The notes beneath the pieces are model-generated. The model was given only the letters and a program-made list of their open reading frames with translations. It had not been told where the DNA came from and made no database searches. Positions 18,483 to 51,596 of a stretch of DNA of 64,000 bases are shown piece by piece (position 1 is the stretch's first letter; each line of letters begins with the position of its first letter). This DNA comes from Escherichia phage vB_EcoS_MM-1. Both the position numbers and the translations under genes were made by a program. The stretch lies in sequence record PV577657; one strand, written 5' to 3'.

Positions 18483-18704
18483 TTATTCAATTACTTTAGC
18501 TCTAGCTACTTCTTTTAATAGAATATCTATGGAGGTGCTCAGCTCGTTATAATTGAATGGTTTATTTGGATTTGAGGTTACAATTTTCCACGCTAGGGTT
18601 GTCTTAGGACTTTCTTCCCCTTCCTTACGTGTAATCATATTAGCAGCACTCAGTGAAGTACGATGTATTTTAGTTTTACGGCTCAGATGAACGACGTTTC
18701 CCAT
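18483..18704 (-). CDS. hypothetical protein
   Basis: 73-aa ORF from MGNVVHLSRK directly after phoH stop; ORF-track N-terminal extension overlaps phoH. Confidence 0.45.
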   Translation of the reverse strand: MGNVVHLSRKTKIHRTSLSAANMITRKEGEESPKTTLAWKIVTSNPNKPFNYNELSTSIDILLKEVARAKVIE

Positions 18705-24877: not shown

Positions 24878-25016
24878 TTTTTATTAGCTGAAATTTGTAA
24901 TCCGGGCTATTAGTGCTCGGATTATTACATAATCTTTTCAGTCGATTGACAGTCAAAATAAATTGTCGTTGACAATTTGGATGGATTATGTAATAATATA
25001 TGTATTGGAGGTGAGG

Positions 25017-25469
25017 ATGTCATTCACACAGCAAGAACTTTTAGATAACTTCCGATATGAAGATGGTAAGTTATTTAGAACTACAGGAAGAAATGCAGGG
25101 AAAGAATGTTGTGTTTCTACAGGTAACGGATATTATCGTATATCTCTAGGGAATAGGACTATGCTTCGGCATAGAGCAATATTTTTAATGCATCATGGAT
25201 ACTTACCTGATTTAGTAGATCATGTGAATACTATAAAAGGTGATGATCGTATTGAAAATCTTAGAGAGCAGACAGTATCCGGTAATCTAAGAAATATCAA
25301 ATATAAGAAAGGAATGCATGTTTACCCTTCTGGTAGTAAGAACTGGCAAGTGGTATTTACTATTAACCGTAAACGTATAGTTAAAGGAACATATGACAAC
25401 TATGAGGTTGCATGTTCTATGGCCAAGATGTTTAGAGGTCAATTATACGGTAGGGAATCAATCCAGTAA
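25017..25469 (+). CDS. HNH homing endonuclease (HNH + AP2-like DNA-binding)
   Basis: VDHVNTIKGDDRIENLR HNH motif; GGAGGTGAGG RBS before MSFTQQ. Confidence 0.8.
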   Translation: MSFTQQELLDNFRYEDGKLFRTTGRNAGKECCVSTGNGYYRISLGNRTMLRHRAIFLMHHGYLPDLVDHVNTIKGDDRIENLREQTVSGNLRNIKYKKGMHVYPSGSKNWQVVFTINRKRIVKGTYDNYEVACSMAKMFRGQLYGRESIQ

Positions 25470-25481
25470 AATTTCATTTGC

Positions 25482-25520
25482 AAGGGAGTATTATTTTATA
25501 GTATAATATTCCCATAAATG
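25482..25520 (+). promoter_or_regulatory. T5-type early promoter reading into untranslated leader
   Basis: TTGCAA -18- TATAAT then ATTCCCATAAATGAGAG; no start codon follows. Confidence 0.6.
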
Positions 25521-26004
25521 AGAGACATTAGTAAAAATTGATTTTGCTAATTTTTCTTGTTTACAATCCGCGATACGGAACAGTTAGGCTGCCCCATTAA
25601 GGGTTGTTTTAACTGTTACGTGTTAGTTTTTAAACAAATAGTTAATAGAATACTTAGCGATCTACATCCCGTAGGAACCCTGGTAAGGCCTCGAAGCAAC
25701 CTAGTGTGAGGTGGTTGTGAAGTGAGACGGGAAGAGTGAAAAACTCTGAGAAGTGATGACGTAAGGTATACTGCATCTAGTATGAGCTAGTACATGAAGC
25801 ATTAGGTGAGCAAATCTGGCTTAGCGGCCATCCTCAAGGATTTGTGCGGTATAGTGAAGCGGCAGTGTAGCGTGAAAGGGGAAGTTGCCACCCCCCTTCA
25901 GTATTTGCGATTAATTTGTTGAGAAATTGACAGTAACAGTTGTTCTATTCTTTCTGAATAGTCCTAAAGAAAACTTATTTCATTTCCAACACAGGAGTAT
26001 TGTT

Positions 26005-28791
26005 GTGTTCTCAATCCTACAAGGTCATGCAGGATTTCATCGCGATTTAGCCACAGGCATTTGGCGAGAAGTTAAAGCAGAAGACTATCTTTTTGCTAAA
26101 AGATTTTCCTCAAAGCATCCTGAAGGTAAACCAGCTTCAATGCCCTTCAAGTTTGATGTAATTGATGAAGTTGATCCTCAAACCCTAGTAGAAATGCTCC
26201 CTCTTATGAGACGTTTAACGTCTGACCCTCATATCGTTGCGGTACGAGGTCGATGTCTTGCACCCAAAAATAATGTGCGGCGTAAGAAGGGCAACTTTAA
26301 TGTATCTAACCCAAGTCATATAATTGCAATGGACGTGGATGGTATTGTAGATACAGGTGGTTGTAACAAGTTTGATCTTGTTGGCATGGCTCGACATATT
26401 ATTAGAATGTTAAATAGTATTAGTGAGGATATGTTTCCTCTTGATGCAGGGTTTATTGCTCATGCATCGTCTTCGGCTGGGCTAAAACCAGGTATCCGAA
26501 TGCACTTAATACTAGAATCTAATGTTAAAGTAACTCAGGGTCAAATCAAATTCTTATTTACATCTATCAATGAAAGTAGTAGACAAAAGTATGGCTTTGA
26601 TATTGCCGACTTAGCTTATTACTCTTCCGTACAGCTCCATTATTTTGCAGATCCGTTATTTACCGATGGTATAGTAGATCCGTTTAAGGCGGAGGGTGCT
26701 TCACGTCTGGTATTTGTTAAGGGTTCTAAAGTAAACTTACCTAATAATCTGGTTGACTATGAAACAACTAGAGGTGAGTTTAAGGAGGAGTTTTACTCTT
26801 TACTCGATCAAATTAAAGGTAAAAAAGCTGCCTCCGATAAAGTAGAGGAAACTATCAGCGAACTAGAAGAAGCTGAGGATGGAGTGTATCTACGTATCAT
26901 ACCTAAACTCTATCACAGAGCTTTAGAGGATGGTGTTGATTTTGCATGGCTAGAAAAAGAAATCCGTCCAGCCTTATCAGAATATATTGCAACCAAAGAT
27001 AATAGTCGTAATATTCAAGATTACTTTAATAACGGTCGTAAACAGGCTCTGAAAGCATTTGTTAATAATTCTAAACGCGATATACCTGATGTTTTAAAAG
27101 GTATTCCACTTAAAAAGCTAGAAACTAACTCTCTAGAAACTGATAACTTCTTGAAATTAAATACTGTACCACCAGAAGGTTATATGACTTTTGTAAAAGC
27201 AAGTCTAGGTACAGGTAAAACTACGGCGGTTGTGCGTTGGTTAGATTCAGGAGTTATTAAAGGTAATTTCTTAGCAATTACCAATACTCGAGCACTGGTA
27301 TCTTCAAATGCTAAGAAATTTAGTGCAGGACAATATGATAAGTCTGTAGATATGCTTAATTTTAAGCGTGGTGCTATTGACCGTATGTCCACAACTATTC
27401 ACTCTTTGCATAAGTTCAAGAGTTTTATTGGTCAAATCGATGCAATCTTTATAGATGAATGTGATGCTGTAATGAATGACCTATTATTCGCCCCGGTTGT
27501 TAAACAACGTCGTGAATGTATTCAGGTTCTTCGGGATATTCTTGCAACTGCAAAAATCATTATATTATCTGATGGGGATATTAGTGCAGAAACAATTGAA
27601 GCATATGGTTCTTTAATTGAGTTTGATAAACCGGTTGCATTTTATAATCATCACCGAAAAATGCTATCAAAAGCTCATGCCTACGAGTTCCCTGATGAAT
27701 CCAGTATTTGGGTTGCACTTCAGACTTCTCTAGAGATGGGTGAGAAATCTATCCTAGTATCTGACTGTGGGCCGGATGAACTGAATGAGAAGGGCATGGC
27801 GTTGCGTCGTAATACGGGTGCGTTAGTTAAGGAAATCCACTCAAACTCTACGTCTGATGTAGATATTCGACGTATTCTGGATTACACAACTAATGAGTTA
27901 ATTGACCAACAAATTGATTGCTTATTATGTAGTCCATCCGTAACGAGTGGTGTTGACTTCAACTATTTTGATAACGTATTCGTTATTACTAGAACCAGTA
28001 ACCAAGCGCCAAACATGCGTTTTCAAGCAATCAGGCGCGACCGTGGTGCTCAGAACATTTATTATTTTATTGATAAATCTACGAGTGGATTCTCCGCAGG
28101 CTCTGAACAATATAATATTGATGAAGGTTGGCTGGAGTTAGCACAGCAATTATACGCACGTCGTAGGGAGCTGGAGTCTAGGAACTATACTAGTACTTTA
28201 CGTTATTACTTGCTTGATCAGGGTGCAACTATTGATATTTTCAGTGAAAGCTGGGGAACTATCGAAGGTGCAGGTAAAGAGTATACAGAAGAGCGAATCA
28301 AAGCCATTTTGTATTCAACTCCTGATTATTGTGCTCCACGCCATGCAGATGCATATGAAGCTAAACTACTTCTTGTTCGCTATTATCATCTTGAGTCTAT
28401 TAAAGATGTAACAGTTGAGCATGTTGAGCAATACATTAAGGATAAACCGAATGATCGAGCGGCATTCTTCCATAAAATGCACGAGATGTTCTGGGAAGAT
28501 ATTAAGAAGTGTTCAAATGTCACTATCAAACCATTCATAGAAGCTCTGAAAGGCAAGAAGAAAGATTTCTTCCTTAAAACAGGTCAGAGTGCTAACCCAA
28601 AATATGCCAGAATGTATCTTGGTATGATGGGTATTGGCAAGGATATGAACACGGAGAATATTGTAGACTGGTACAGAACTTATTGTAAAATCGAGTGTAT
28701 GCCAATTCCTTTCAAATTCATGACAGAGGAAGAGAAGGCTATGGCAGAAGAAGTACTGTCCGAACTTGGAGCAACTAATGAAGACGCATAA
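26005..28791 (+). CDS. putative replication initiator: AEP/PrimPol-like N-terminal domain fused to P-loop NTPase (helicase-like)
   Basis: N-terminal IAMDVDG and GIRMHLIL (AEP motifs I/II-like); C-terminal Walker A SLGTGKTT and Walker B FIDECD; start at GTG 26005 after AGGAG (ORF-track 25927). Confidence 0.6.
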   Translation: MFSILQGHAGFHRDLATGIWREVKAEDYLFAKRFSSKHPEGKPASMPFKFDVIDEVDPQTLVEMLPLMRRLTSDPHIVAVRGRCLAPKNNVRRKKGNFNVSNPSHIIAMDVDGIVDTGGCNKFDLVGMARHIIRMLNSISEDMFPLDAGFIAHASSSAGLKPGIRMHLILESNVKVTQGQIKFLFTSINESSRQKYGFDIADLAYYSSVQLHYFADPLFTDGIVDPFKAEGASRLVFVKGSKVNLPNNLVDYETTRGEFKEEFYSLLDQIKGKKAASDKVEETISELEEAEDGVYLRIIPKLYHRALEDGVDFAWLEKEIRPALSEYIATKDNSRNIQDYFNNGRKQALKAFVNNSKRDIPDVLKGIPLKKLETNSLETDNFLKLNTVPPEGYMTFVKASLGTGKTTAVVRWLDSGVIKGNFLAITNTRALVSSNAKKFSAGQYDKSVDMLNFKRGAIDRMSTTIHSLHKFKSFIGQIDAIFIDECDAVMNDLLFAPVVKQRRECIQVLRDILATAKIIILSDGDISAETIEAYGSLIEFDKPVAFYNHHRKMLSKAHAYEFPDESSIWVALQTSLEMGEKSILVSDCGPDELNEKGMALRRNTGALVKEIHSNSTSDVDIRRILDYTTNELIDQQIDCLLCSPSVTSGVDFNYFDNVFVITRTSNQAPNMRFQAIRRDRGAQNIYYFIDKSTSGFSAGSEQYNIDEGWLELAQQLYARRRELESRNYTSTLRYYLLDQGATIDIFSESWGTIEGAGKEYTEERIKAILYSTPDYCAPRHADAYEAKLLLVRYYHLESIKDVTVEHVEQYIKDKPNDRAAFFHKMHEMFWEDIKKCSNVTIKPFIEALKGKKKDFFLKTGQSANPKYARMYLGMMGIGKDMNTENIVDWYRTYCKIECMPIPFKFMTEEEKAMAEEVLSELGATNEDA

Positions 28792-29296
28792 ACCAATGCC
28801 TCCTATGGCATTTATCCTAGAAAAGCTTAGGTATGACGAAAGTACTGGGGACTTAATTTGGTTATCTGGCCCAAGGAAGGGAAAGGTAGCGGGCTCCAAA
28901 ATGAAAACTGGGAGACAGCTAGAGTTTATGATAAATGGGGGGCGGACAGCTTACTTAGCCCATAGAATAATCTGGTTTATAAAGACAGGTGAAGATCCTG
29001 GAGATAAAACTATTGACCATAAAGACGGTGATAGTTTAAACAACTTGTGGGATAATTTACGTAAGGCTACCTATTCCGAAAATGGAAAGAATAAGAAGTG
29101 TTCTACTAATTCTACCGGATTCACTGGAGTTGTAAAACGAGGTAATAGGTATATGGCCTACGCTTACTGCGATGGAAAGCAACATATTTTTGGTAGACGA
29201 GATACCCCGGAAGAAGCCCATCAGCTATACCTTAGGGGAGTTAAAGAGCTGTTTGGTGAATTTAATCCCTCGGAGAGATATGACAGTGAAGAATAA
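28778..29296 (+). CDS. HNH homing endonuclease
   Basis: IDHKDGDSLNNLWDNLR HNH motif; overlaps 3' end of upstream gene. Confidence 0.8.
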   Translation: MKTHKPMPPMAFILEKLRYDESTGDLIWLSGPRKGKVAGSKMKTGRQLEFMINGGRTAYLAHRIIWFIKTGEDPGDKTIDHKDGDSLNNLWDNLRKATYSENGKNKKCSTNSTGFTGVVKRGNRYMAYAYCDGKQHIFGRRDTPEEAHQLYLRGVKELFGEFNPSERYDSEE

Positions 29297-29513
29297 AAAA
29301 TGGGAAACAAGGAAGTTTCCAGTAAAAGAACGTAAAGTTCCTGTTTATGATACTTCGGAGAAGCTATGTAGGGTGGTACCGCACAGATTAGCTGGCATCC
29401 CTAACATATCCGAGTGGTTACTTAAACAACGGAGGACTAGCGTATCCCTTCGCATAGGGTTTGAGTTAGATAAAGTATATGCTGAACTTTCTTCTTTGCT
29501 CAAGGAATCGTAA
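29280..29513 (+). CDS. small hypothetical protein
   Basis: ORF-track 29172..29513; probable start MTVKNKKW after GGAGAG. Confidence 0.4.
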   Translation: MTVKNKKWETRKFPVKERKVPVYDTSEKLCRVVPHRLAGIPNISEWLLKQRRTSVSLRIGFELDKVYAELSSLLKES

Positions 29514-29581: not shown

Positions 29582-30286
29582 ATGGCTGGTTCTCGTAGAA
29601 AGAAACATATCCATGAAATCCCGGATGAAGTCTTTAAAAAGGTTATAGAGCATCTGGAGAACGGTGGTACTAAGAAAGCAGCATGTGAAATGCTCGGCGT
29701 ATCATCCAATCCAACTATGGAAAGGATGATTGAAGAATGGCAAGACCGCCAGATTCAAGTTGCCGAAATGAAGAAAAAGAAACGTGGCACACTCATTGAA
29801 GGCATTGAGTTAGCTAACGTTATTGAGCAGTATTTATCTGGTGATTCTTTTGAAGAAATTGCCGATCGTAATTACCGCTCTGTAGCAATGGTTAAATCTG
29901 TTCTGGAACGATATGGTGCTCTACTTCGTTTGAACGATATTGTAGATCCATTGAATCCTCCAATTATTCCTGATGATGCTGTAGCAGAAGAATTTGCAGT
30001 TGGTGAGCTTGTTTGGGTTCCTGGATACCAGTGTATCGGTGAAATCAAAAAAGCAATGGATAATCCTGTTGGTTGCTACCGTGTATGGCTTCTATCCGAA
30101 GGCAAACAACAGAACGTTCATTATATGAATTACGAGCTGGCTTCTGTTAAACATCTGGAAAAGTTAGGGGTAGACGTAAAATCTCTAGGGTATAAGTGGA
30201 CTCGTGAAGAAATTATTACGTTGATTAACGAAGCTGTTAAGGCTGCTCTGAAACTTGATAAAGAAAAAGGAAAACGCCGTGAGTAA
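29582..30286 (+). CDS. hypothetical early protein with N-terminal HTH-like segment
   Basis: 234-aa ORF immediately after PN25-like promoter. Confidence 0.75.
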   Translation: MAGSRRKKHIHEIPDEVFKKVIEHLENGGTKKAACEMLGVSSNPTMERMIEEWQDRQIQVAEMKKKKRGTLIEGIELANVIEQYLSGDSFEEIADRNYRSVAMVKSVLERYGALLRLNDIVDPLNPPIIPDDAVAEEFAVGELVWVPGYQCIGEIKKAMDNPVGCYRVWLLSEGKQQNVHYMNYELASVKHLEKLGVDVKSLGYKWTREEIITLINEAVKAALKLDKEKGKRRE

Positions 30287-32095: not shown

Positions 32096-33067
32096 ATGAC
32101 CAATGTAAAAGACTTTATTAAACGCTGTCAAGAAGCATATTATCAAGGTATGTCTTTAATCTCTGACGAAGAATATGATCGTCTGATTAAAAGATTTCCG
32201 TTAGAAGAAGAGATCGGGCCTAAGGGCGATATTCCACATCTGTATCGTATGTATTCTTTACAGAAAGTTTATTATAATCGTGGAGATAAACCCCCGTTTA
32301 ACCCATTAGGTCAGGTAGAAACTGATAAGTTAGATGGTTGTGCAATTTCTCTGTTATATATTAATGGCGAATTTGTTCAAGCACTAACTCGTGGTAACGG
32401 TATTCTAGGGAATGATGTCACAAGCAACGTAAGATTGCTGAACATCCCTAAAAAGATTTCCCAAAAAGTACCTACTCAAATCACTGGTGAAGTTCTAATT
32501 ACAAAAGAAGTAGAAAATAAACGTAACTTTGCCTCTGGTGCTATTAACCTCAAAGATAGTGATGATTTTGTACAACGTATCGGAGAAGGTGGTTTAATCT
32601 TCGTTGCATATGGTATCCAGTGTTCTGCTGAATCTGTAGGTATTACAGAAGCATATTTAAAAGATATGCTTTGGCTGGAGAATGAGAACTTCTTAACAGT
32701 TGTTAATGTGCGTTCTTTCTTTAAATGGATTCCGACGGACGGTAAAGTTGTTCGTATTAATGATAACAACAAATTCTTCCGTGAAGGCTGGACTAATAAA
32801 TTCCCTCGTGGAGCATTCGCTATTAAAGAGGATGAAGAAGGCGAGATTACAACTCTTACTAAAGTTGAATGGCAGGTAGGAGCTTCTGGTAAAGTAACTC
32901 CAGTTGGTTATTTCGAACCGGTAATTATTGATGATGCTACAATTGTTAAAGCGACTCTTAATAACGTTGATTATATTAACTCTCTTGATCTAGAGATCGG
33001 TTGCCAGATTCGAGTGATTCGTGCTGGTGGTGTAATCCCGTGCATAGTAGAGCGAGTATATGATTAA
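32096..33067 (+). CDS. NAD-dependent DNA ligase, N-terminal fragment (adenylation + OB domains)
   Basis: KxDG adenylation motif (DKLDGCAISLLY); ends after OB-fold region; 323 aa. Confidence 0.85.
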   Translation: MTNVKDFIKRCQEAYYQGMSLISDEEYDRLIKRFPLEEEIGPKGDIPHLYRMYSLQKVYYNRGDKPPFNPLGQVETDKLDGCAISLLYINGEFVQALTRGNGILGNDVTSNVRLLNIPKKISQKVPTQITGEVLITKEVENKRNFASGAINLKDSDDFVQRIGEGGLIFVAYGIQCSAESVGITEAYLKDMLWLENENFLTVVNVRSFFKWIPTDGKVVRINDNNKFFREGWTNKFPRGAFAIKEDEEGEITTLTKVEWQVGASGKVTPVGYFEPVIIDDATIVKATLNNVDYINSLDLEIGCQIRVIRAGGVIPCIVERVYD

Positions 33068-33266: not shown

Positions 33267-34049
33267 TTGATGAAAATCGAAATTCCAACACAATGTCCCT
33301 CTTGTGGTTCTAAGCTAGATCTTGTCAACGGACAATTATTTTGTCGGAATAAGTCCAACTGTCCAGCGCAATCAAGTAAGTTAATTGAGAACTTCTGTAC
33401 AAAAATGAAGTTAAAGGGCTTTGGTCCAAAAACTATTGAAAAGCTGGAGCTGACGAAGATCTCAGAACTATTTTACCTAACCGAAGAAGATTTGGTTAGA
33501 GCCGTGGGTAGCAAGGTTGCCGCTAAGTTAATTAGCGAATTAAATACTAAAGTTCGCGGAGACATTGACTTTGGTTCAGTTCTCGGTTCTTTAGGAATCC
33601 CTCTAATTGGAGAGGTTGCAGCAAAGAAATTATCCCAAAATTGCACTAGCTTCCACGATGTGAAGGCTGACGGCAAGGCTGGAGAAAACTACAAAGCCTG
33701 GCTAAATTCCCCGCAAGGCAAGGATGTTATCGAACTACCGTGGAAATTCTCAACTGGTATTAAGGGCACTAAAGCTGACGTCATCATTACAGATGAATTA
33801 GTTGCCCAGCCAAATGGAATCGCGGTATGTATTACCGGATCTTTGCAAGATTTTGCAAATCGAACGGATGCAACAAACTATTTAGAAAGTCTAGGGTATA
33901 CGGTTAAGAAATCCGTTACCAAAGACGTAAAATACCTGATCTGTGAGGATGAATCAAAACGTTCTTCCTCATCTTATAAGAAAGCCGAAACGAATGGGAT
34001 AGAAATCCTGTCGATTAAAGAACTATTGGAGAAAAATAATAATGTCTAA
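33267..34049 (+). CDS. NAD-dependent DNA ligase, C-terminal fragment (Zn-finger, HhH, BRCT)
   Basis: Starts at LigA-type Zn finger CPSCGS...C..C; HhH-like GIPLIGEVAAKKL; 260 aa. Confidence 0.85.
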   Translation: MMKIEIPTQCPSCGSKLDLVNGQLFCRNKSNCPAQSSKLIENFCTKMKLKGFGPKTIEKLELTKISELFYLTEEDLVRAVGSKVAAKLISELNTKVRGDIDFGSVLGSLGIPLIGEVAAKKLSQNCTSFHDVKADGKAGENYKAWLNSPQGKDVIELPWKFSTGIKGTKADVIITDELVAQPNGIAVCITGSLQDFANRTDATNYLESLGYTVKKSVTKDVKYLICEDESKRSSSSYKKAETNGIEILSIKELLEKNNNV

Positions 34050-34825: not shown

Positions 34826-34860
34826 TAAGGGGAGGGGGCTATGCTCCTTCCCCTTTTTGC
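34826..34860 (+). terminator. rho-independent terminator
   Basis: AAGGGGAGGGGG...CTCCTTCCCCTT hairpin + TTTT. Confidence 0.65.
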
Positions 34861-34891
34861 ATTTAGAAGGCACGAAAGCGTGCAAAGGAGA

Positions 34892-36364
34892 ATGACCTTG
34901 TTTAACGTGCAAGCTGTAGTGTTGAAGATGCTTCTAGCTTCTGAACAGAAGCAAATAGCATTGGAAACATTCTCAAAACTGCATAAAGATCATTTTAATG
35001 ACGCTTTCTCCTCAATTTACCAAGCCGTCCAGAATTATTATAAAAAATATAACACAATGCCGTCCATTGACGCACTGATGCTTGAGGCTAATAGGAACGC
35101 CCGCCTTTCTCAAGCTCTAGTCGTTTTAGCTAACACTCAAATTCCAGAAGTGAGCATGGAACAGGCACTTGAAGTCCTAGAGGCCGAATATACACAGGAT
35201 TTATTCCTAAAGCTTCTAGAAACAGACGTGCTTCAAGATTTAACAATGCTGGATCAGGGAGAAATTCTCAACCGAGTTGCCTCCCTTCACTTAAAATTAG
35301 AAGAGAAAGTAACGAATACTGGAAAAGTATTCAACGCAGATAACATGCGTATTTTCCAGAGAGAAGAAGATACCAAACTGAACCTAATCGCTCTTGGTAT
35401 TTGTAATGAGTTCGACGCTCAAATTGGTTTAGCTCGCACAGAAACGTTACTGCTTGGTGGTTGGCGTGGTACTGGTAAATCCATTATCTGTTCAAACATA
35501 CAGGTTCAGCAATATTTGAATGGAGATATTGCTCCATACTTCTCAATTGAGATGAAAGAACATGAAGTATTTAGACGTAATCTAGCCATGCTAGCTGGTG
35601 TATCAGCACTAGCAATGCGTAATAATACTCTAGAAGGTGCAGCTCTGTTGAGACTAGCCAGAACTAGAGCTAGGATGTTCAACGGTGGTGAAGAGCTTTT
35701 CGATAACTTCGTTAAACAGTATACAATGGCTAAGATGAGTGATTTCTACGATATGGAGAGTAAGCTAATAGAAGGGTATGAGCTACATACTCCTATGATT
35801 ATTGTTTATGACCCTGAGTTGTCTATTACAACAGTTGACGTAGAATTAAATAAATTAGTTGCTAGATATGGTGATAAAGTTACAGTAGCTCTACTTGACT
35901 ATATTAACCAAACCCGACTTCCAGACTCTAAAACCATTGATATGTATGACTGGAAAGAACAGATGGTTGTTAGCTCGTCTTTCAAATCTATCTGCCAGAA
36001 ACATAACGTGGCTGGCGTAGCTCCTTACCAGATCGATCAAGACGGTAGAACACGTATGTCAAAGGGGATTCTTGATTCCGCAGACATGGCTGCTAATCTT
36101 AATGCTGCAAAAGCTGATAATGGTCAAGGTGCTATTATGTTTGACTTCGTTAAGACTCGTTCTTCTGATAGCGTGAAGTTTATGCCTAAAATGAACTGGG
36201 AAACTCTGCGAATGGATAACACTACCAACCTAGCAATGGAAGATATATCTCAAATGGAAGCTGAGTTCGTTATCCCTATTGAGAAGGATAAGCCGGCTCA
36301 ACCTAAACGTGCTAAGAAAGACAAAGCTGAAAATTCAACAGGTGAACAGGCCAGCGATATATGA
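34892..36364 (+). CDS. replicative helicase (DnaB/RecA-fold ATPase-like)
   Basis: Walker A GGWRGTGKS; start at MTLFNV after AAAGGAG (ORF-track 34841 overlaps terminator). Confidence 0.65.
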   Translation: MTLFNVQAVVLKMLLASEQKQIALETFSKLHKDHFNDAFSSIYQAVQNYYKKYNTMPSIDALMLEANRNARLSQALVVLANTQIPEVSMEQALEVLEAEYTQDLFLKLLETDVLQDLTMLDQGEILNRVASLHLKLEEKVTNTGKVFNADNMRIFQREEDTKLNLIALGICNEFDAQIGLARTETLLLGGWRGTGKSIICSNIQVQQYLNGDIAPYFSIEMKEHEVFRRNLAMLAGVSALAMRNNTLEGAALLRLARTRARMFNGGEELFDNFVKQYTMAKMSDFYDMESKLIEGYELHTPMIIVYDPELSITTVDVELNKLVARYGDKVTVALLDYINQTRLPDSKTIDMYDWKEQMVVSSSFKSICQKHNVAGVAPYQIDQDGRTRMSKGILDSADMAANLNAAKADNGQGAIMFDFVKTRSSDSVKFMPKMNWETLRMDNTTNLAMEDISQMEAEFVIPIEKDKPAQPKRAKKDKAENSTGEQASDI

Positions 36365-36894
36365 TAACACAGGAAAGGCTAAAAGAGTTATTTGATTACT
36401 CCCCAGGAACTGGGGAGTTTACTAGAAAAGTATCTAGAGGTAATCAGAAAGCTGGTAGTATAGCTGGTTCTTTAAGAAAAGATGATTATATATGTATATG
36501 GGTAGATGGAAAGCCTTACTATGCGCATCAACTAGCTTTTCTCTATATGGAAGGTTATTTACCTGAAGAAGTAGACCATATAAACCGTATACGAAGTGAT
36601 AATCGTTGGGTTAACCTTAAAGATTCTTCTCACCAAGAGAATAGCAGGAATAAAGCAGCTAAAAGTAAATCAGGGTATATAGGAGTTAGTTGGAATAAAC
36701 AAAGGCAAAAATGGCAAGTTCAACTAAGAGATACCAATAAAAAGAAAATATTCGGTGGATATTTTGAGTACCAGAATTTAGAATCAGCAGTAGATAAGAT
36801 TAATAATCTACGATTACAATTTCATGGGGAAAATGCTATTCAAGAAATATTCGACCCGTCTAATTATCCTGCATTAGAGGAGATAAATTCATGA
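36361..36894 (+). CDS. HNH homing endonuclease
   Basis: VDHINRIRSDNRWVNL HNH motif; overlaps helicase stop and primase start. Confidence 0.8.
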   Translation: MITQERLKELFDYSPGTGEFTRKVSRGNQKAGSIAGSLRKDDYICIWVDGKPYYAHQLAFLYMEGYLPEEVDHINRIRSDNRWVNLKDSSHQENSRNKAAKSKSGYIGVSWNKQRQKWQVQLRDTNKKKIFGGYFEYQNLESAVDKINNLRLQFHGENAIQEIFDPSNYPALEEINS

Positions 36895-37781
36895 GTAGAA
36901 TAACAGAATTACTTGATCTTAAGGGAATTGAGTATAAAGATACTGGTGGAGATATTTTAATCTGTTGCTTAAATCCATATCATGATGATAAACACCCAAG
37001 TTTGCGTATTGATCCTGAAACCGGGATTATGCACTGCTTGAGTTGCGGTTTTGGCAAAGGTATACCTAGTATTTATCATTATTTTAATGAGACTCAATAT
37101 AGACAATCTCCAAGACTATCCCAAGTACGTAAAAAGATTTCAGAGATTAGAAATGGATCTACGAATCTTGCAATCCCAGAATCTGCCTGCCTTTTCGAAG
37201 GTGATTTCCGAGGTATAAGTTCTAAGACCTTGAAGAAATATTTTGCTTTCCAACACCAAGAGAACTGGGAAGGCAGAATTGTATTCCCAATCACAGATGC
37301 TGTTGGACGCAATATCCTATTTTTGGGTCGTTCTATAAACAGTTCTGCCCCTCCTAAATACTTAGTAAAACCAAAACAGGTTTCACCACCAATTTTCCCT
37401 GTACGATATAATACTCCAGTTCTTATTCTAGTTGAAGGTATCTTTGATATGCTGAACCTAGAGGATAGTGGTATAGACTATGCTTCTTGCTGCTTTGGTA
37501 CACATCAGTTTACTTCAGACAACATTGCAGATAAGTTCAGTCCGTACATTATTGCTGGTGTTAAAGTTGTTGTTATCTTACTAGATAATGATGCTTCTGG
37601 TAATAAAGCTGCACAAGCACTGGCCAAGCTAATTCGTACAAAAACGCGTTTAACACCTGTAGTTGCTAACTTTCTTCTGCCTGAAGGTAAAGACCCAGGT
37701 GACTTAAATAAAGAAGAAATTGATATGTTAGCAAAACGTATTGAAATTTTAGTTGCTGAATCGCTTAAAGATTTGGTATAA
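36891..37781 (+). CDS. DnaG-type DNA primase (CHC2 Zn finger + Toprim)
   Basis: C-x2-H...C-x2-C zinc finger; Toprim EGIFD and LLDNDASG. Confidence 0.85.
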   Translation: MSRITELLDLKGIEYKDTGGDILICCLNPYHDDKHPSLRIDPETGIMHCLSCGFGKGIPSIYHYFNETQYRQSPRLSQVRKKISEIRNGSTNLAIPESACLFEGDFRGISSKTLKKYFAFQHQENWEGRIVFPITDAVGRNILFLGRSINSSAPPKYLVKPKQVSPPIFPVRYNTPVLILVEGIFDMLNLEDSGIDYASCCFGTHQFTSDNIADKFSPYIIAGVKVVVILLDNDASGNKAAQALAKLIRTKTRLTPVVANFLLPEGKDPGDLNKEEIDMLAKRIEILVAESLKDLV

Positions 37782-48827: not shown

Positions 48828-51596
48828 CTATGAGTTATCTGGCTTAATAAGCTCGCTAACAAGTTTCTTCAGTTCGGTTAATTCTTGCTCAAGTTTGTTA
48901 ACTTTATCAGCTTGATAACGAAATGCGCAAGCTAGGTCTGCCATAATGACGTTGTTATCAAGCGCTAATGTGTCATCTGCTTTGTCAACAACAATTTGAC
49001 GATCTACATATTCTTCACCTTCATCGTTAACACCTACAACATCTGCAAAAATATCACCTCCCGGGATTAATTTTACGTATTCGGGATCTATTTTTAGCAG
49101 GTCTTGGGCTATTAAGCCGAATCGTTGGATATCGCTACCGTTGTATTTAAACATCGTTGGCAACCACTGCATAACTCGGTCATAGCTTTCTTTTCCATCT
49201 GTATAAATTATATCGTGCTTTAAATCTCTGTCAGAGTTAGCGGCCTTTTGAAAAATGAAATTTCCACTTGATGACCATGTGGTTATATCGTTTGAGGCTG
49301 GCTGAAACTGGAAGTTACAGAAAAAATTACCATCACCACGAAGTCTTAGCGAGCAAAAAGGCCAAGCATTATTTCCCTGTGGGATAAGTCCCCAAGTTGC
49401 GCGAATTGGATAACCACCAGTGGATTGTGTACCCCATGAAAGGCCAGGTGCCCATCCACCATCATTGTTAGCAATAGTCTCACCCCAAACAAGAGCATTA
49501 CCCCAATAGTTAGGAGCATCCCATCCCATTTGTTGGGTTTTGCCAGTGTATTGAGCAGAATGCGTTCTGCCGTCAGGGTAAAACTTGTGCATATAGGACC
49601 GTATCCCTGCTTGATACAACTCTATTCCAAAAGATTCAACGTGTGTGTCGCCTCTTCTGATTAAACCAGCGATAGCGTAATCGTCATACCAGTTGTAACG
49701 ACTTACACCAGTCCATGTGTTTATTGGTGGATTCATGATTGAAAATAGTTGTGACGCATTGCGTTCATTCCCATCTGCATAAATACCAGCCCCAGGAGCT
49801 AAGGAAATACTTTTCGCTCCTGAAAAAGTACCATTTTCATTAAACTGATAATACTGTGATGCCCCATTATGAAATACGCCTATTGTATGCTTTCCTACGC
49901 CTACTTGAGTCTCAAAATAAGACTGAGAAGAACCAATATCTTCGCCTTGTGTATTCTTTAATTTTGAATGATATATACCTGCATTTGCAGTAGTTGCATT
50001 TTCCGTTTCGTTTTCAACATTAAGACTTAGGAACTTTGGTGCATGTTTCTCACCAAGCCCTATATTATTTCTGATACCATTCGCATCCTTAGCACCTGTA
50101 CCACCAAATTGAATACCTAGTGGTAGCCATTGATTGGTTGTAGCATCATAAACGCCCCAATGATCCCCACCATCTGGAATGGTTAGATACTTGTTTTTAT
50201 TTGGAGAATATAAAATTGTTTCACCAGAATTCTGAAACAGCCTATCAACTCCTAAATTATATCTAGCACCTTCAGGAGTATCTGCTCCTGTACCACCAGC
50301 CGCAGTTGATAATGGAAGAGTTTCCCATGATATTCCATCACCTTTTGTATCTCTCTGAAGTACAATAAGACCATCATCTCTAATAACAAATCTATATAAT
50401 CTATTATGTGAATATAGAAAAGTATGAACCCCATCTTGTACAAGTGAGTCTATAAGGAGTGTCTGACGAGAAGCATTGATATTTGACAGATCTGAGAGAT
50501 TATTTTCTTTTAGTAACGATTTACTAATGATACCTTCAGCTTTTCCAGCAGCTACTTCCGCACGCCCAGCGTCTGTAGATGCACTTTGTGCGCTACCAGC
50601 AGCATTGCTAGCTTGTTGTCCTGCTTCGGTAGCGCTATTACTTGCTTGTGCAGCCGAGGCTGCAGCAGCATCTTTTAGCACTGTAGTTTCCGTTACCGCA
50701 CTATCCTTAATACCTTGTGTGTCTGTTTTTAATTGCTCAACATCAGATTTTAAAGCCGTTGTTTCACCTATAGTGCTGTCTTTAATTAGTTGAGTATCTG
50801 TTTTTAATTGCTCAACATCTGATTTTAAGCCTTGAATAGTAGTTACTGATTGGTTAGCTGAGGCTGCGGAATGGGCTGCATTAGTCTCACTAGTTTTTGC
50901 ATTGGTTTCACTAGTTTTTGCATTGGCTTCACTAGCTTTTGCATTAGTTTCCGAGGTTTTTGCAGCGGATGCTGATGCGGCGGCTTGTGCAGAGAATATT
51001 TCTGCCCCATCTCTATAGCCTTTAGAATCCGAAGCAGAAGCAGCAGCATTAGTTTCACTAGCCTTTGCCTTATCTTCACTAGTCTTTGCTGCAATAGCAG
51101 AAGCAGCAGCATTAGTTTCACTAGCCTTTGCCTTATCTTCGCTAGCCTTTGCATTAGTCTCACTAGTTTTTGCGTTAGTCTCACTAGTTTTTGCATTAGT
51201 TTCACTAGCCTTTGCCTTATCTTCGCTAGTTTTAGCATTAGTCTCAGATATTTTAGCTGCAGCTGCTGATTCCTCCGATTTAGTAGCTGATGCAGCAGAT
51301 TGAGTAGCAGATGTAGCGGACTGAGTGGCAGAGGCTTCAGAAGCTCCAGCAGAAATAGCAGCTTCCTGTTCAGAGTTCTTAGCATTAAGCTCCGAAGTTT
51401 TAGCCGCTATCTCAGAATCTTTTGCAGCTGCAGCAGACTTAGCTGCAGCCTCAATAGAAGATACTAACTCACTTGCAGTAATAGAGCTAATAGAATTACC
51501 TAGAGTTACTGTATATCTAGGAAACTTACTAGCAGTAGCTTTAGTATCATCAATATTTAATATTTGTTGTACAATAATTTTAGTAGTTACTGCCAT
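48828..51596 (-). CDS. L-shaped tail fibre protein with phage-fibre repeats and C-terminal chaperone-like domain
   Basis: SETNAKT heptad repeats; C-terminus resembles intramolecular chaperone/S74 auto-cleaving domain; 922 aa. Confidence 0.8.
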   Translation of the reverse strand: MAVTTKIIVQQILNIDDTKATASKFPRYTVTLGNSISSITASELVSSIEAAAKSAAAAKDSEIAAKTSELNAKNSEQEAAISAGASEASATQSATSATQSAASATKSEESAAAAKISETNAKTSEDKAKASETNAKTSETNAKTSETNAKASEDKAKASETNAAASAIAAKTSEDKAKASETNAAASASDSKGYRDGAEIFSAQAAASASAAKTSETNAKASEANAKTSETNAKTSETNAAHSAASANQSVTTIQGLKSDVEQLKTDTQLIKDSTIGETTALKSDVEQLKTDTQGIKDSAVTETTVLKDAAAASAAQASNSATEAGQQASNAAGSAQSASTDAGRAEVAAGKAEGIISKSLLKENNLSDLSNINASRQTLLIDSLVQDGVHTFLYSHNRLYRFVIRDDGLIVLQRDTKGDGISWETLPLSTAAGGTGADTPEGARYNLGVDRLFQNSGETILYSPNKNKYLTIPDGGDHWGVYDATTNQWLPLGIQFGGTGAKDANGIRNNIGLGEKHAPKFLSLNVENETENATTANAGIYHSKLKNTQGEDIGSSQSYFETQVGVGKHTIGVFHNGASQYYQFNENGTFSGAKSISLAPGAGIYADGNERNASQLFSIMNPPINTWTGVSRYNWYDDYAIAGLIRRGDTHVESFGIELYQAGIRSYMHKFYPDGRTHSAQYTGKTQQMGWDAPNYWGNALVWGETIANNDGGWAPGLSWGTQSTGGYPIRATWGLIPQGNNAWPFCSLRLRGDGNFFCNFQFQPASNDITTWSSSGNFIFQKAANSDRDLKHDIIYTDGKESYDRVMQWLPTMFKYNGSDIQRFGLIAQDLLKIDPEYVKLIPGGDIFADVVGVNDEGEEYVDRQIVVDKADDTLALDNNVIMADLACAFRYQADKVNKLEQELTELKKLVSELIKPDNS
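50870..51300 (-). repeat. tandem ~21-bp repeat array inside tail-fibre gene
   Basis: Reiterated TTTTGCATTAGT(C/T)TCACTAG units on + strand. Confidence 0.8.

Follow-up and report, generated by a model that had tools for sequence, protein, structure and literature searches.

An archaeo-eukaryotic primase-like domain in the UL9/CyRepA-type helicase proposed as replication initiator of T5-type phages

Introduction

The closest described relative of the protein treated here is "D2" of phage T5 (AAU05245, 928 amino acids (aa)), which Wong et al. 2013 (PMC3632103) cloned, the two primers coding for the ends VFSILQG... and ...TNEDA*. Purified T5 D2 hydrolyses ATP in a DNA-dependent manner and is a bipolar helicase whose 3'-5' activity exceeds the 5'-3' activity; both ATPase and helicase are lost in the K405E variant (PMC3632103). 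It binds as a monomer or low oligomer, has a modest processivity, and works on substrates that have tails or forks, for which no dependence on sequence is reported (PMC3632103). Older genetics cited in the same paper describes D2 amber mutants without net DNA synthesis. The sequence analysis in that work put Walker A at aa 399-406 and found only PF02399 (392-532), a helix-turn-helix (308-329) and coiled coils; aa 1-390 were left without an enzymatic assignment, and the word "primase" appears solely in a reference title. Here we analyse the orthologous gene, obp, in a stretch of 64,000 nucleotides (nt) from Escherichia phage vB_EcoS_MM-1 (sequence record PV577657; this whole stretch is called the window), and report that its N-terminal domain very probably belongs to the superfamily of archaeo-eukaryotic primases (AEPs).

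The known systems to which such a protein has to be compared are few. Kazlauskas 2016 reported that double-stranded DNA viruses carry one primase type, an AEP or else a DnaG homologue, RM378 being the sole exception in the data set of that survey, and that the RepA proteins of N15 and PY54 are fusions of a DnaG-type primase with a superfamily 2 (SF2) helicase acting in replication. CyRepA is an experimentally validated Rep of cyanobacterial plasmids, in which a Toprim-related DUF3854 precedes the helicase. The AEP signature consists of motif I DxD, motif II sxH and motif III hD, plus a motif IV "Rh" (Kazlauskas 2018). The Asp residues of motifs I and III are metal ligands, and the His of motif II, which binds the nucleotide, is replaced by Gln, Arg or Lys in some families.

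Results

The obp gene and its conservation in Demerecviridae

The first-pass annotation, made from the letters alone, had placed a large replication protein at 26005..28791 on the plus strand. The reading frame is indeed there, as a single open reading frame (ORF) of 928 aa plus stop, with a GTG start and AGGAG 6 nt upstream, and the four motifs named in that annotation lie at the expected residues (GIRMHLIL at aa 163-170, the others as in Table 1). The start and the stop are those used in cloning the T5 orthologue, since VFSILQG... and ...TNEDA* of the cloned D2 are the termini of this ORF. The protein shares 94% amino acid identity with T5.108 of T5, and a PHROG search showed that phrog_3712, "replication origin binding", spans the ORF from end to end. 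The labels of the gene in GenBank are inconsistent ("origin binding", "DNA primase", "DNA primase C", "repA" and "hypothetical"); as several records use "DNA primase" or "DNA primase C", a primase signal has already been seen by some annotators. The gene is universal in the Demerecviridae sampled, where it is syntenic and stands at the head of the replication module. Phage vB_EcoS_MM-2 (Demerecviridae, Tequintavirus) is 100% identical over positions 24900-29400 of the window, and many T5-like phages show 95-97% identity over the same region. All positions given here are those of the window, which are obtained by subtracting 31892 from the position in the record.

Sequence and structural evidence for an AEP domain at the N-terminus

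For aa 1-390, Pfam, NCBIfam and PHROG gave no annotation besides the family's own PHROG. The domain itself is found in all Demerecviridae sampled (905 phage records, identity down to 25%), and 81 proteins came out of 1.84 billion cluster representatives that were searched exhaustively with HMMER; a separate protein-index search with the domain and its alignment gave short fragments only, and the family appears to be almost absent there. In nine orthologues from Escherichia, Klebsiella, Pectobacterium, Vibrio and Aeromonas phages, D110, D112 and H167 are invariant down to 27% identity, as are K405, D484 and E485 of the C-terminal half, which shows that the motifs did not arise as random strings. 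Conservation was then scored in a wider set of 75 diverged homologues, down to about 20% identity. Both Asp residues of the hhhDhD motif I are near-invariant there (D110 in 73/75 and D112 in 74/75), and motif II, which reads SSSAG..GIRMH, keeps S155 and G159 in 70/75 each and has His at position 167 in 69 of the 75 sequences, with Arg in the other 6. The hD of motif III is represented by D202, the third acidic residue, which is conserved in all 75 sequences, as is P217. Moreover, K32 (73/75) and R93 (71/75) are highly conserved, and R234-L235 (69/75) is a candidate for motif IV "Rh", with R234 possibly equivalent to R231 of PolpTN2. Thus IAMDVDG and GIRMHLIL, which had been picked out beforehand as AEP-like, correspond to motif I and to part of motif II, and the acidic triad, whose absence would have spoken for a non-catalytic fold, is present and conserved (D110, D112 and D202).

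The predicted structure agrees with this assignment. A single-sequence AlphaFold run on the full protein was unusable (predicted local distance difference test (pLDDT) 36), and AlphaFold2 with the 75-sequence alignment gave a model of aa 1-382 with a pLDDT of 93.8 and a predicted TM-score (pTM) of 0.79. In this model D110 and D112 lie on the beta strand 104-114, and the segment from S155 to H167 forms a hairpin between the strands 150-154 and 164-176. Of the top 50 Foldseek matches in the PDB nearly all are AEPs, the sole others being two chains of AAV2 Rep68. The best match is the PolDom of M. tuberculosis LigD (E 2.8e-3, probability 0.98), and other AEPs among the matches are ASFV PrimPol, RepB', cyanophage S-2L PrimPol, HP0184, Prim-PolC and human PrimPol, together with the AEP domains of vaccinia D5 and mpox E5 and the HSV helicase-primase. 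The three values of the structural comparison are 6.4, 143 and 3.7 for human PrimPol, 6.2, 138 and 3.6 for the mpox E5 AEP domain, 5.8, 169 and 4.4 for HSV-1 UL52, 5.7, 113 and 3.9 for pRN1 ORF904, and 5.4, 126 and 3.7 for HP0184. Among viral predicted structures there were 54 matches at E<=1e-3; beyond the orthologues their names include "Primase, C-terminal 2", "DNA primase", "DNA primase/helicase", "Virulence associated protein E", "NrS-1 polymerase-like" and "AE_Prim_S_like", as well as generic ones such as "AAA domain" and "helicase". Because the structural scores are modest, the fold evidence alone is only suggestive.

The third line of evidence comes from the domain partners. The 81 proteins of the HMMER search split cleanly into two sets. 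Those of the first set (P0003-P0038) are, short fragments aside, about 900-1050 aa long and have the AEP domain together with the helicase, and most of them match the helical and C-terminal domains too; about 30 clusters at 50% identity retain AEP and helicase together. In the second set (P0039-P0083) the similarity is confined to the first ~250 residues, and the domains that follow are VapE-like in 11 of 44 cases, DUF5906/SF3 (superfamily 3) in 9 and PriCT_2 in 4, with D5_N and Pox_D5 also found. For example, P0045 has the order AEP-like domain, PriCT_2, D5_N, DUF5906 and Pox_D5, which is the standard layout of mobile-element AEP primase-helicases. In the reciprocal direction, tblastn with the domain of P0045 found the "DNA primase" of Xylella phage Xfas53 at 1e-38 and, with 95% of the query covered, the T5-type proteins at about 1e-11. 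Taking fold, motifs and domain partners together, we consider membership of the N-terminal domain in the AEP superfamily as very probable. Of the N-terminal 400 aa that had been called AEP-like, the AEP character stands and the extent does not, as the catalytic core covers about 250 aa and is followed by a helical domain. This helical domain has no Pfam match; its identity with PriCT-2 was considered and rejected, with an hhalign probability of 0.2% against a small PriCT-2 profile of 4 sequences.

A domain with an AEP fold does not have to prime. It could have become a DNA-binding, origin-recognition or polymerase-recruitment module for the helicase, with all the priming left to the DnaG-type primase of the phage. 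SF3 initiators would be a parallel, as their origin-binding domains derive from nucleases and have lost the activity. Such a loss of function would fit with the full DnaB/DnaG pair encoded nearby, with the observation that both primase types are almost never found in one virus (Kazlauskas 2016), and with the fact that a primase activity of T5 D2 is not reported. However, the metal-binding Asp residues and the His of motif II are near-invariant over a very deep divergence, and inactivated domains normally lose these; furthermore, the same domain family holds the primase position in the PriCT-2/D5/VirE primase-helicases. We therefore regard an AEP that no longer primes as unlikely.

The C-terminal half is a UL9/CyRepA-type SF2 helicase

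The P-loop ATPase that the first-pass annotation had seen in the C-terminal half is real: Walker A and B are invariant, and the ATPase activity of the T5 orthologue has been demonstrated. In the nine orthologues G402, G404, K405 and T406 of Walker A, D484, E485 and D487 of Walker B (DExD), the stretch S643-F652 of motif V, and R672, Q674, R678 and R680 of motif VI (QxxxRxxR) are all invariant. As for the kind of helicase, Pfam assigned Herpes_ori_bp (PF02399) to aa 394-533 with 29.2 bits against a cut-off of 20, covering profile positions 51-197 of 820, and a search of PDB sequences returned only herpesvirus UL9 structures (9hgj at E 2e-5, and at 2e-6 with the family profile). The NCBIfam model CyRepA1 (NF042913) matched aa 393-722 with E 4.7e-35 and 121.6 bits against an equivalog cut-off of 200; judged by this profile match, the helicase is related to CyRepA1 and not an equivalog of it. 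A search for SF3/D5 helicase families had been proposed as a check, and there the expectation failed, since the window protein has no D5_N, DUF5906, Pox_D5 or VirE match in Pfam or NCBIfam and is an SF2 protein of the UL9/CyRepA type. The SF3/D5 identity was rejected for this reason, such models occurring only in the distant homologues of the AEP domain. A mixed full-length profile searched against PDB sequences found only helicase, VapE and KaiC-type P-loops. In phages, tblastn of the helicase core at 1e-5 found Demerecviridae only, so that the connection with the RepA of N15 and PhiHAP-1 is taken from Wong et al. and from the CyRepA1 model. The last 206 aa (723-928) have no Pfam, NCBIfam or PDB sequence match and no relatives were detected for them outside the family; they are conserved with the remaining architecture in most of the full-length representatives of P0003-P0038.

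The properties of the helicase also bear on another explanation, in which the protein is a PrimPol-type enzyme for fork restart and repriming, and not an origin initiator, opening forks that are stalled or broken, for instance at the natural nicks in T5 DNA or at recombination intermediates, and repriming downstream. The bipolar activity on tailed and forked substrates with no reported sequence requirement, the repair enzymes PrimPol and LigD PolDom among the structural neighbours, and the lack of a detected origin-binding domain are all consistent with it. It is at odds with the helicase family, of which UL9 and CyRepA1 are replication initiators, with the phenotype without net DNA synthesis of the D2 amber mutants cited by Wong et al., and with the universal and syntenic position of the gene heading the replication module. 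A role restricted to repriming thus seems quite improbable to us.

A DnaB-like helicase and a DnaG-type primase are encoded downstream

The earlier remark that the phage also encodes a DnaG-type primase and a DnaB-like helicase held good, as both are recognised by Pfam (Table 1), and the gene content hence includes two primase types. The two genes lie 6-9 kb downstream of obp and form a conserved pair beside the polymerase gene. Since the N-terminal fold of the obp product is AEP-like with an intact active site, T5-type phages probably carry two unrelated primases. The fusion protein might even be the main replicative primase-helicase, as N15 RepA or poxvirus D5 are, with DnaB and DnaG being accessory; AEP-helicase and Toprim-SF2 fusions do serve as replicative helicases in other phages (Kazlauskas 2016). 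We hold this to be very unlikely, considering that the T5 protein is a monomer or low oligomer of modest processivity and that a complete DnaB-like/DnaG-like pair has been kept beside the polymerase gene.

Table 1. Positions of obp, its domains and motifs, and the related neighbouring genes in the window
Feature	Position	Strand	Remark
Upstream free-standing HNH endonuclease gene	25017..25469	+	HNH_3 E 2.3e-11; phrog_99
obp ("D2"), replication initiator candidate: AEP, helical, SF2 helicase and C-terminal domains	26005..28791	+	
AEP (primase-polymerase type) catalytic domain, aa 1-250	26005..26754	+	
AEP motif I, IAMDVDG (D110, D112), aa 107-113	26323..26343	+	
AEP motif II, SSSAGLKPGIRMHLIL (S155, S157, G159, H167)	26467..26514	+	beta hairpin in model
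AEP motif III region, DIADLAYY...VQLHYFADP (D202, Y206, Q210, H212, P217)	26599..26655	+	
Candidate motif IV "Rh" (R234-L235)	26701..26718	+	
Helical-bundle domain between primase and helicase, aa ~252-382	26758..27150	+	
SF2 helicase core, aa 388-722	27166..28170	+	PF02399, UL9 9hgj, CyRepA1, K405E of T5 protein
Walker A, SLGTGKTT, aa 400-407	27202-27225	+	
Walker B, FIDECD, aa 482-487	27448-27465	+	
Motif V, SPSVTSGVDF	27931-27960	+	
Motif VI, RFQAIRRDRG	28018-28047	+	
C-terminal domain, aa 723-928; candidate DNA/origin-binding or partner-binding domain	28171..28788	+	
Free-standing HNH endonuclease gene downstream of obp (orthologue of T5 hegI)	28778..29296	+	HNH_3 E 1.3e-12; phrog_99
DnaB-like helicase	34841..36364	+	Pfam DnaB_C E 7.8e-9
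DnaG-type primase	36891..37781	+	Pfam Zn_ribbon_DnaG (CHC2 zinc ribbon), DNAG_N, Toprim_2/4

The HNH genes beside obp are probably mobile insertions

HNH genes had been said to abut obp at both ends. This is right for the downstream gene, which overlaps the 3' end of obp by 14 nt, and wrong for the upstream one, which ends 535 nt before the start of obp and has a promoter-like site of its own. The two flanking HNH proteins are mutually 28% identical, and their genes are distributed differently among the relatives. In T5 the upstream block (24893-25501) is absent, with about 100 nt containing a terminator and a promoter in its place, and the downstream gene is present as hegI. In ECOP18 the upstream gene is present and the block 28782-29275 is absent, and neither gene is found in the relatives My1 and the Klebsiella, Vibrio and Aeromonas phages. 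This presence/absence polymorphism with sharp borders in collinear relatives supports the earlier suggestion of homing-endonuclease mobility around the gene. The junction of the downstream gene points in the same direction. The obp gene of ECOP18 ends in ...GGTGCT AGAAATGACAGTGAAGAATAA, and a near-identical 21 nt, AGATATGACAGTGAAGAATAA, terminate the downstream HNH gene in the window, where obp has a new end, ACTAATGAAGACGCATAA, which includes the HNH start codon. Thus the ancestral 3' end of obp now closes the HNH gene, which places the insertion about seven codons before the obp stop, with the C-terminal tail of the protein replaced, and this junction supports homing-type mobility.

In addition, a third HNH_3 gene lies at 36361-36894 (plus strand) between the DnaB-like and the DnaG-type genes with a 4-nt overlap with each, and its product shares 27% identity with the HNH protein downstream of obp. 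It looks as if the replication module were a hotspot of homing-endonuclease insertions.

The leader of obp and other observations in the region

A leader of about 440 nt lies 5' of obp (25570-25960, plus strand) and is preceded by promoter-like sites at 25478-25507 and 25538-25567. About 284 nt of it cannot be aligned with T5 by blastn, yet the length is equal, and the islands GAGAAGTGATG, GGCTTAGCGGCC and GTTGCCACCCC are conserved in Klebsiella and Pectobacterium relatives. The MM-2 record has two tiny hypothetical coding sequences (CDS) in the leader. There was no Rfam match and no tRNA in it, the minimum free energy (MFE) z was -2.1, and RNAalifold found no consensus structure in 5 sequences; the 12-mer GGCTTAGCGGCC, checked as a possible iteron, is not enriched in the window. 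The leader may be regulatory, or an element close to an origin.

Further downstream, the NAD-dependent DNA ligase is encoded by two ORFs about 200 nt apart (32096-33067 and 33270-34049, plus strand), which are the ligA and ligB subunits given for T5 by Wong et al. (PMC3632103). On the minus strand, the MM-2 record gives the name "tail length tape measure protein" to a CDS of 222 nt beside phoH (18483-18704, record 50375-50596); the length of this CDS and its site among nucleotide-metabolism genes make the label implausible, and it is probably a misannotation.

Discussion

Since Wong et al. purified the T5 helicase, the C-terminal half of what we describe is established biology and the N-terminal half is not. 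The AEP assignment of the D2 N-terminus is new relative to Wong et al. 2013; our literature search brought up no description of an AEP domain in phages of the T5 type, and the T5-type proteins were not among the supplements of Kazlauskas 2018 examined. On balance we favour the reading that obp encodes the replication initiator of Demerecviridae, composed of a catalytically competent AEP, a helical bundle, an SF2 helicase of the UL9/CyRepA type and a lineage-specific C-terminal domain, which opens internal origins and makes the first primer before DnaB and DnaG run the forks. The helicase would bind and open the phage DNA at internal origins, the ATP-dependent unwinding itself, by a non-ring SF2 motor with a 3'-5' preference, being shown for the T5 orthologue. 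The AEP domain, placed by the helical bundle, would then make the first primer or primers on the exposed single strand, the T5 DNA polymerase would extend them, and the DnaB-like helicase and the DnaG-type primase would take over the forks and the priming of Okazaki fragments. The two HNH genes would be independent selfish insertions beside or into obp and not functional parts. The priming step is suggested by the strictly conserved active site, by the same AEP family in bona fide primase-helicases, and by initiators of plasmids and phages in which this helicase family is fused to domains of the primase type.

Several points weigh against this initiator-primase assignment. On the side of the primase, no AEP model was matched in Pfam (E<=1) or NCBIfam by the window protein and 31 homologous domains, and the profile of the AEP domain searched against PDB sequences found no AEP. 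A primase or polymerase activity of D2 is nowhere reported, Wong et al. having neither assayed nor noticed the domain, and the canonical DnaG primase of the phage could account for all the priming. On the side of the initiator, sequence and profile searches did not detect a UL9-like C-terminal origin-binding domain, and sequence-specific origin binding has never been demonstrated for D2. Furthermore, the databases disagree on which ORF is the genetic "D2", so that the amber-mutant phenotype may be that of a neighbouring gene: the 928-aa protein is named D2 by Wong et al., T5.111 is named D2 in the T5 RefSeq, and the identity of "D2" is thereby ambiguous.

The counterpart of T5.111 in the window (29582-30286, plus strand) encodes a protein of 234 aa annotated as "helicase" (phrog_3611). 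It has helix-turn-helix signals in Pfam only and no NTPase motif, and its "helicase" label looks like an error of name transfer.

In T5, a classical model among phages, the only characterised initiator-like helicase turns out to contain an intact AEP active site. This gives a hypothesis that can be tested by mutants, namely that one protein both unwinds and primes. If it is true, a very abundant family with more than 900 sequenced genomes joins the single reported virus with both an AEP and a DnaG primase, and if the T5 AEP is counted, an entire phage family violates the AEP-or-DnaG rule. Moreover, there is a gap in the coverage of Pfam and NCBIfam, as this AEP domain, for which neither has a model, is common to about 45 clusters of primase-helicases from bacteria and mobile elements. 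A far more speculative version, to which we give little credence at present, would be that one T5-type polypeptide combines both initiation functions of herpesviruses, an origin helicase of the UL9 type and an AEP primase of the UL52 type, and lays the first primers, possibly with dNTPs in them, at internal origins until a bacterial-type DnaB/DnaG fork takes over, that Demerecviridae routinely use both primase superfamilies, and that the module is a relic by which the replication apparatus of tailed phages is connected with that of herpesviruses, both of which belong to Duplodnaviria.

Comparison with known systems

Among the known proteins, T5 D2/T5.108 (AAU05245) is the orthologue, sharing the length, the start, the stop and the position of Walker A, and biologically there is no difference between the two. 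The herpesvirus UL9 (PF02399; PDB 9hgj and 9vjh) has a homologous first lobe of the SF2 helicase including Walker A and B, the 3'-5' polarity and the proposed role as initiator; however, the alignment with the obp product is restricted to about 140 residues of this first lobe, and UL9 has no AEP domain, the AEP primase UL52 of herpesviruses being encoded separately. The plasmid Reps CyRepA1 and CyRepA2 resemble the obp product over 330 residues of SF2 helicase and also have a primase-type domain fused N-terminally, but the N-terminus of CyRepA, N15 and PY54 is Toprim-related (DUF3854 or DnaG-like) whereas that of obp is an AEP. The order of an AEP with its DxD/H/D residues, a helical domain and a P-loop helicase is the same as in pRN1 ORF904, poxvirus D5/E5, ASFV PrimPol and the PriCT-2/D5/VirE primases, and by sequence the T5 AEP domain is closest to the AEP-helicase fusions of mobile elements. 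In these fusions the helicase belongs to SF3, whereas the T5-type protein has an SF2 helicase of the UL9/CyRepA type and is without a detectable PriCT-2 or Pfam AEP match. The all3500-family AEPs, which are fused to UL9-like SF2 helicases (Kazlauskas 2018), are likewise AEP-helicase proteins. Finally, Rhodothermus phage RM378 has, like the T5 group, both primase superfamilies in one genome, but only in the T5 group is the AEP fused to an SF2 helicase and conserved over a whole phage family.

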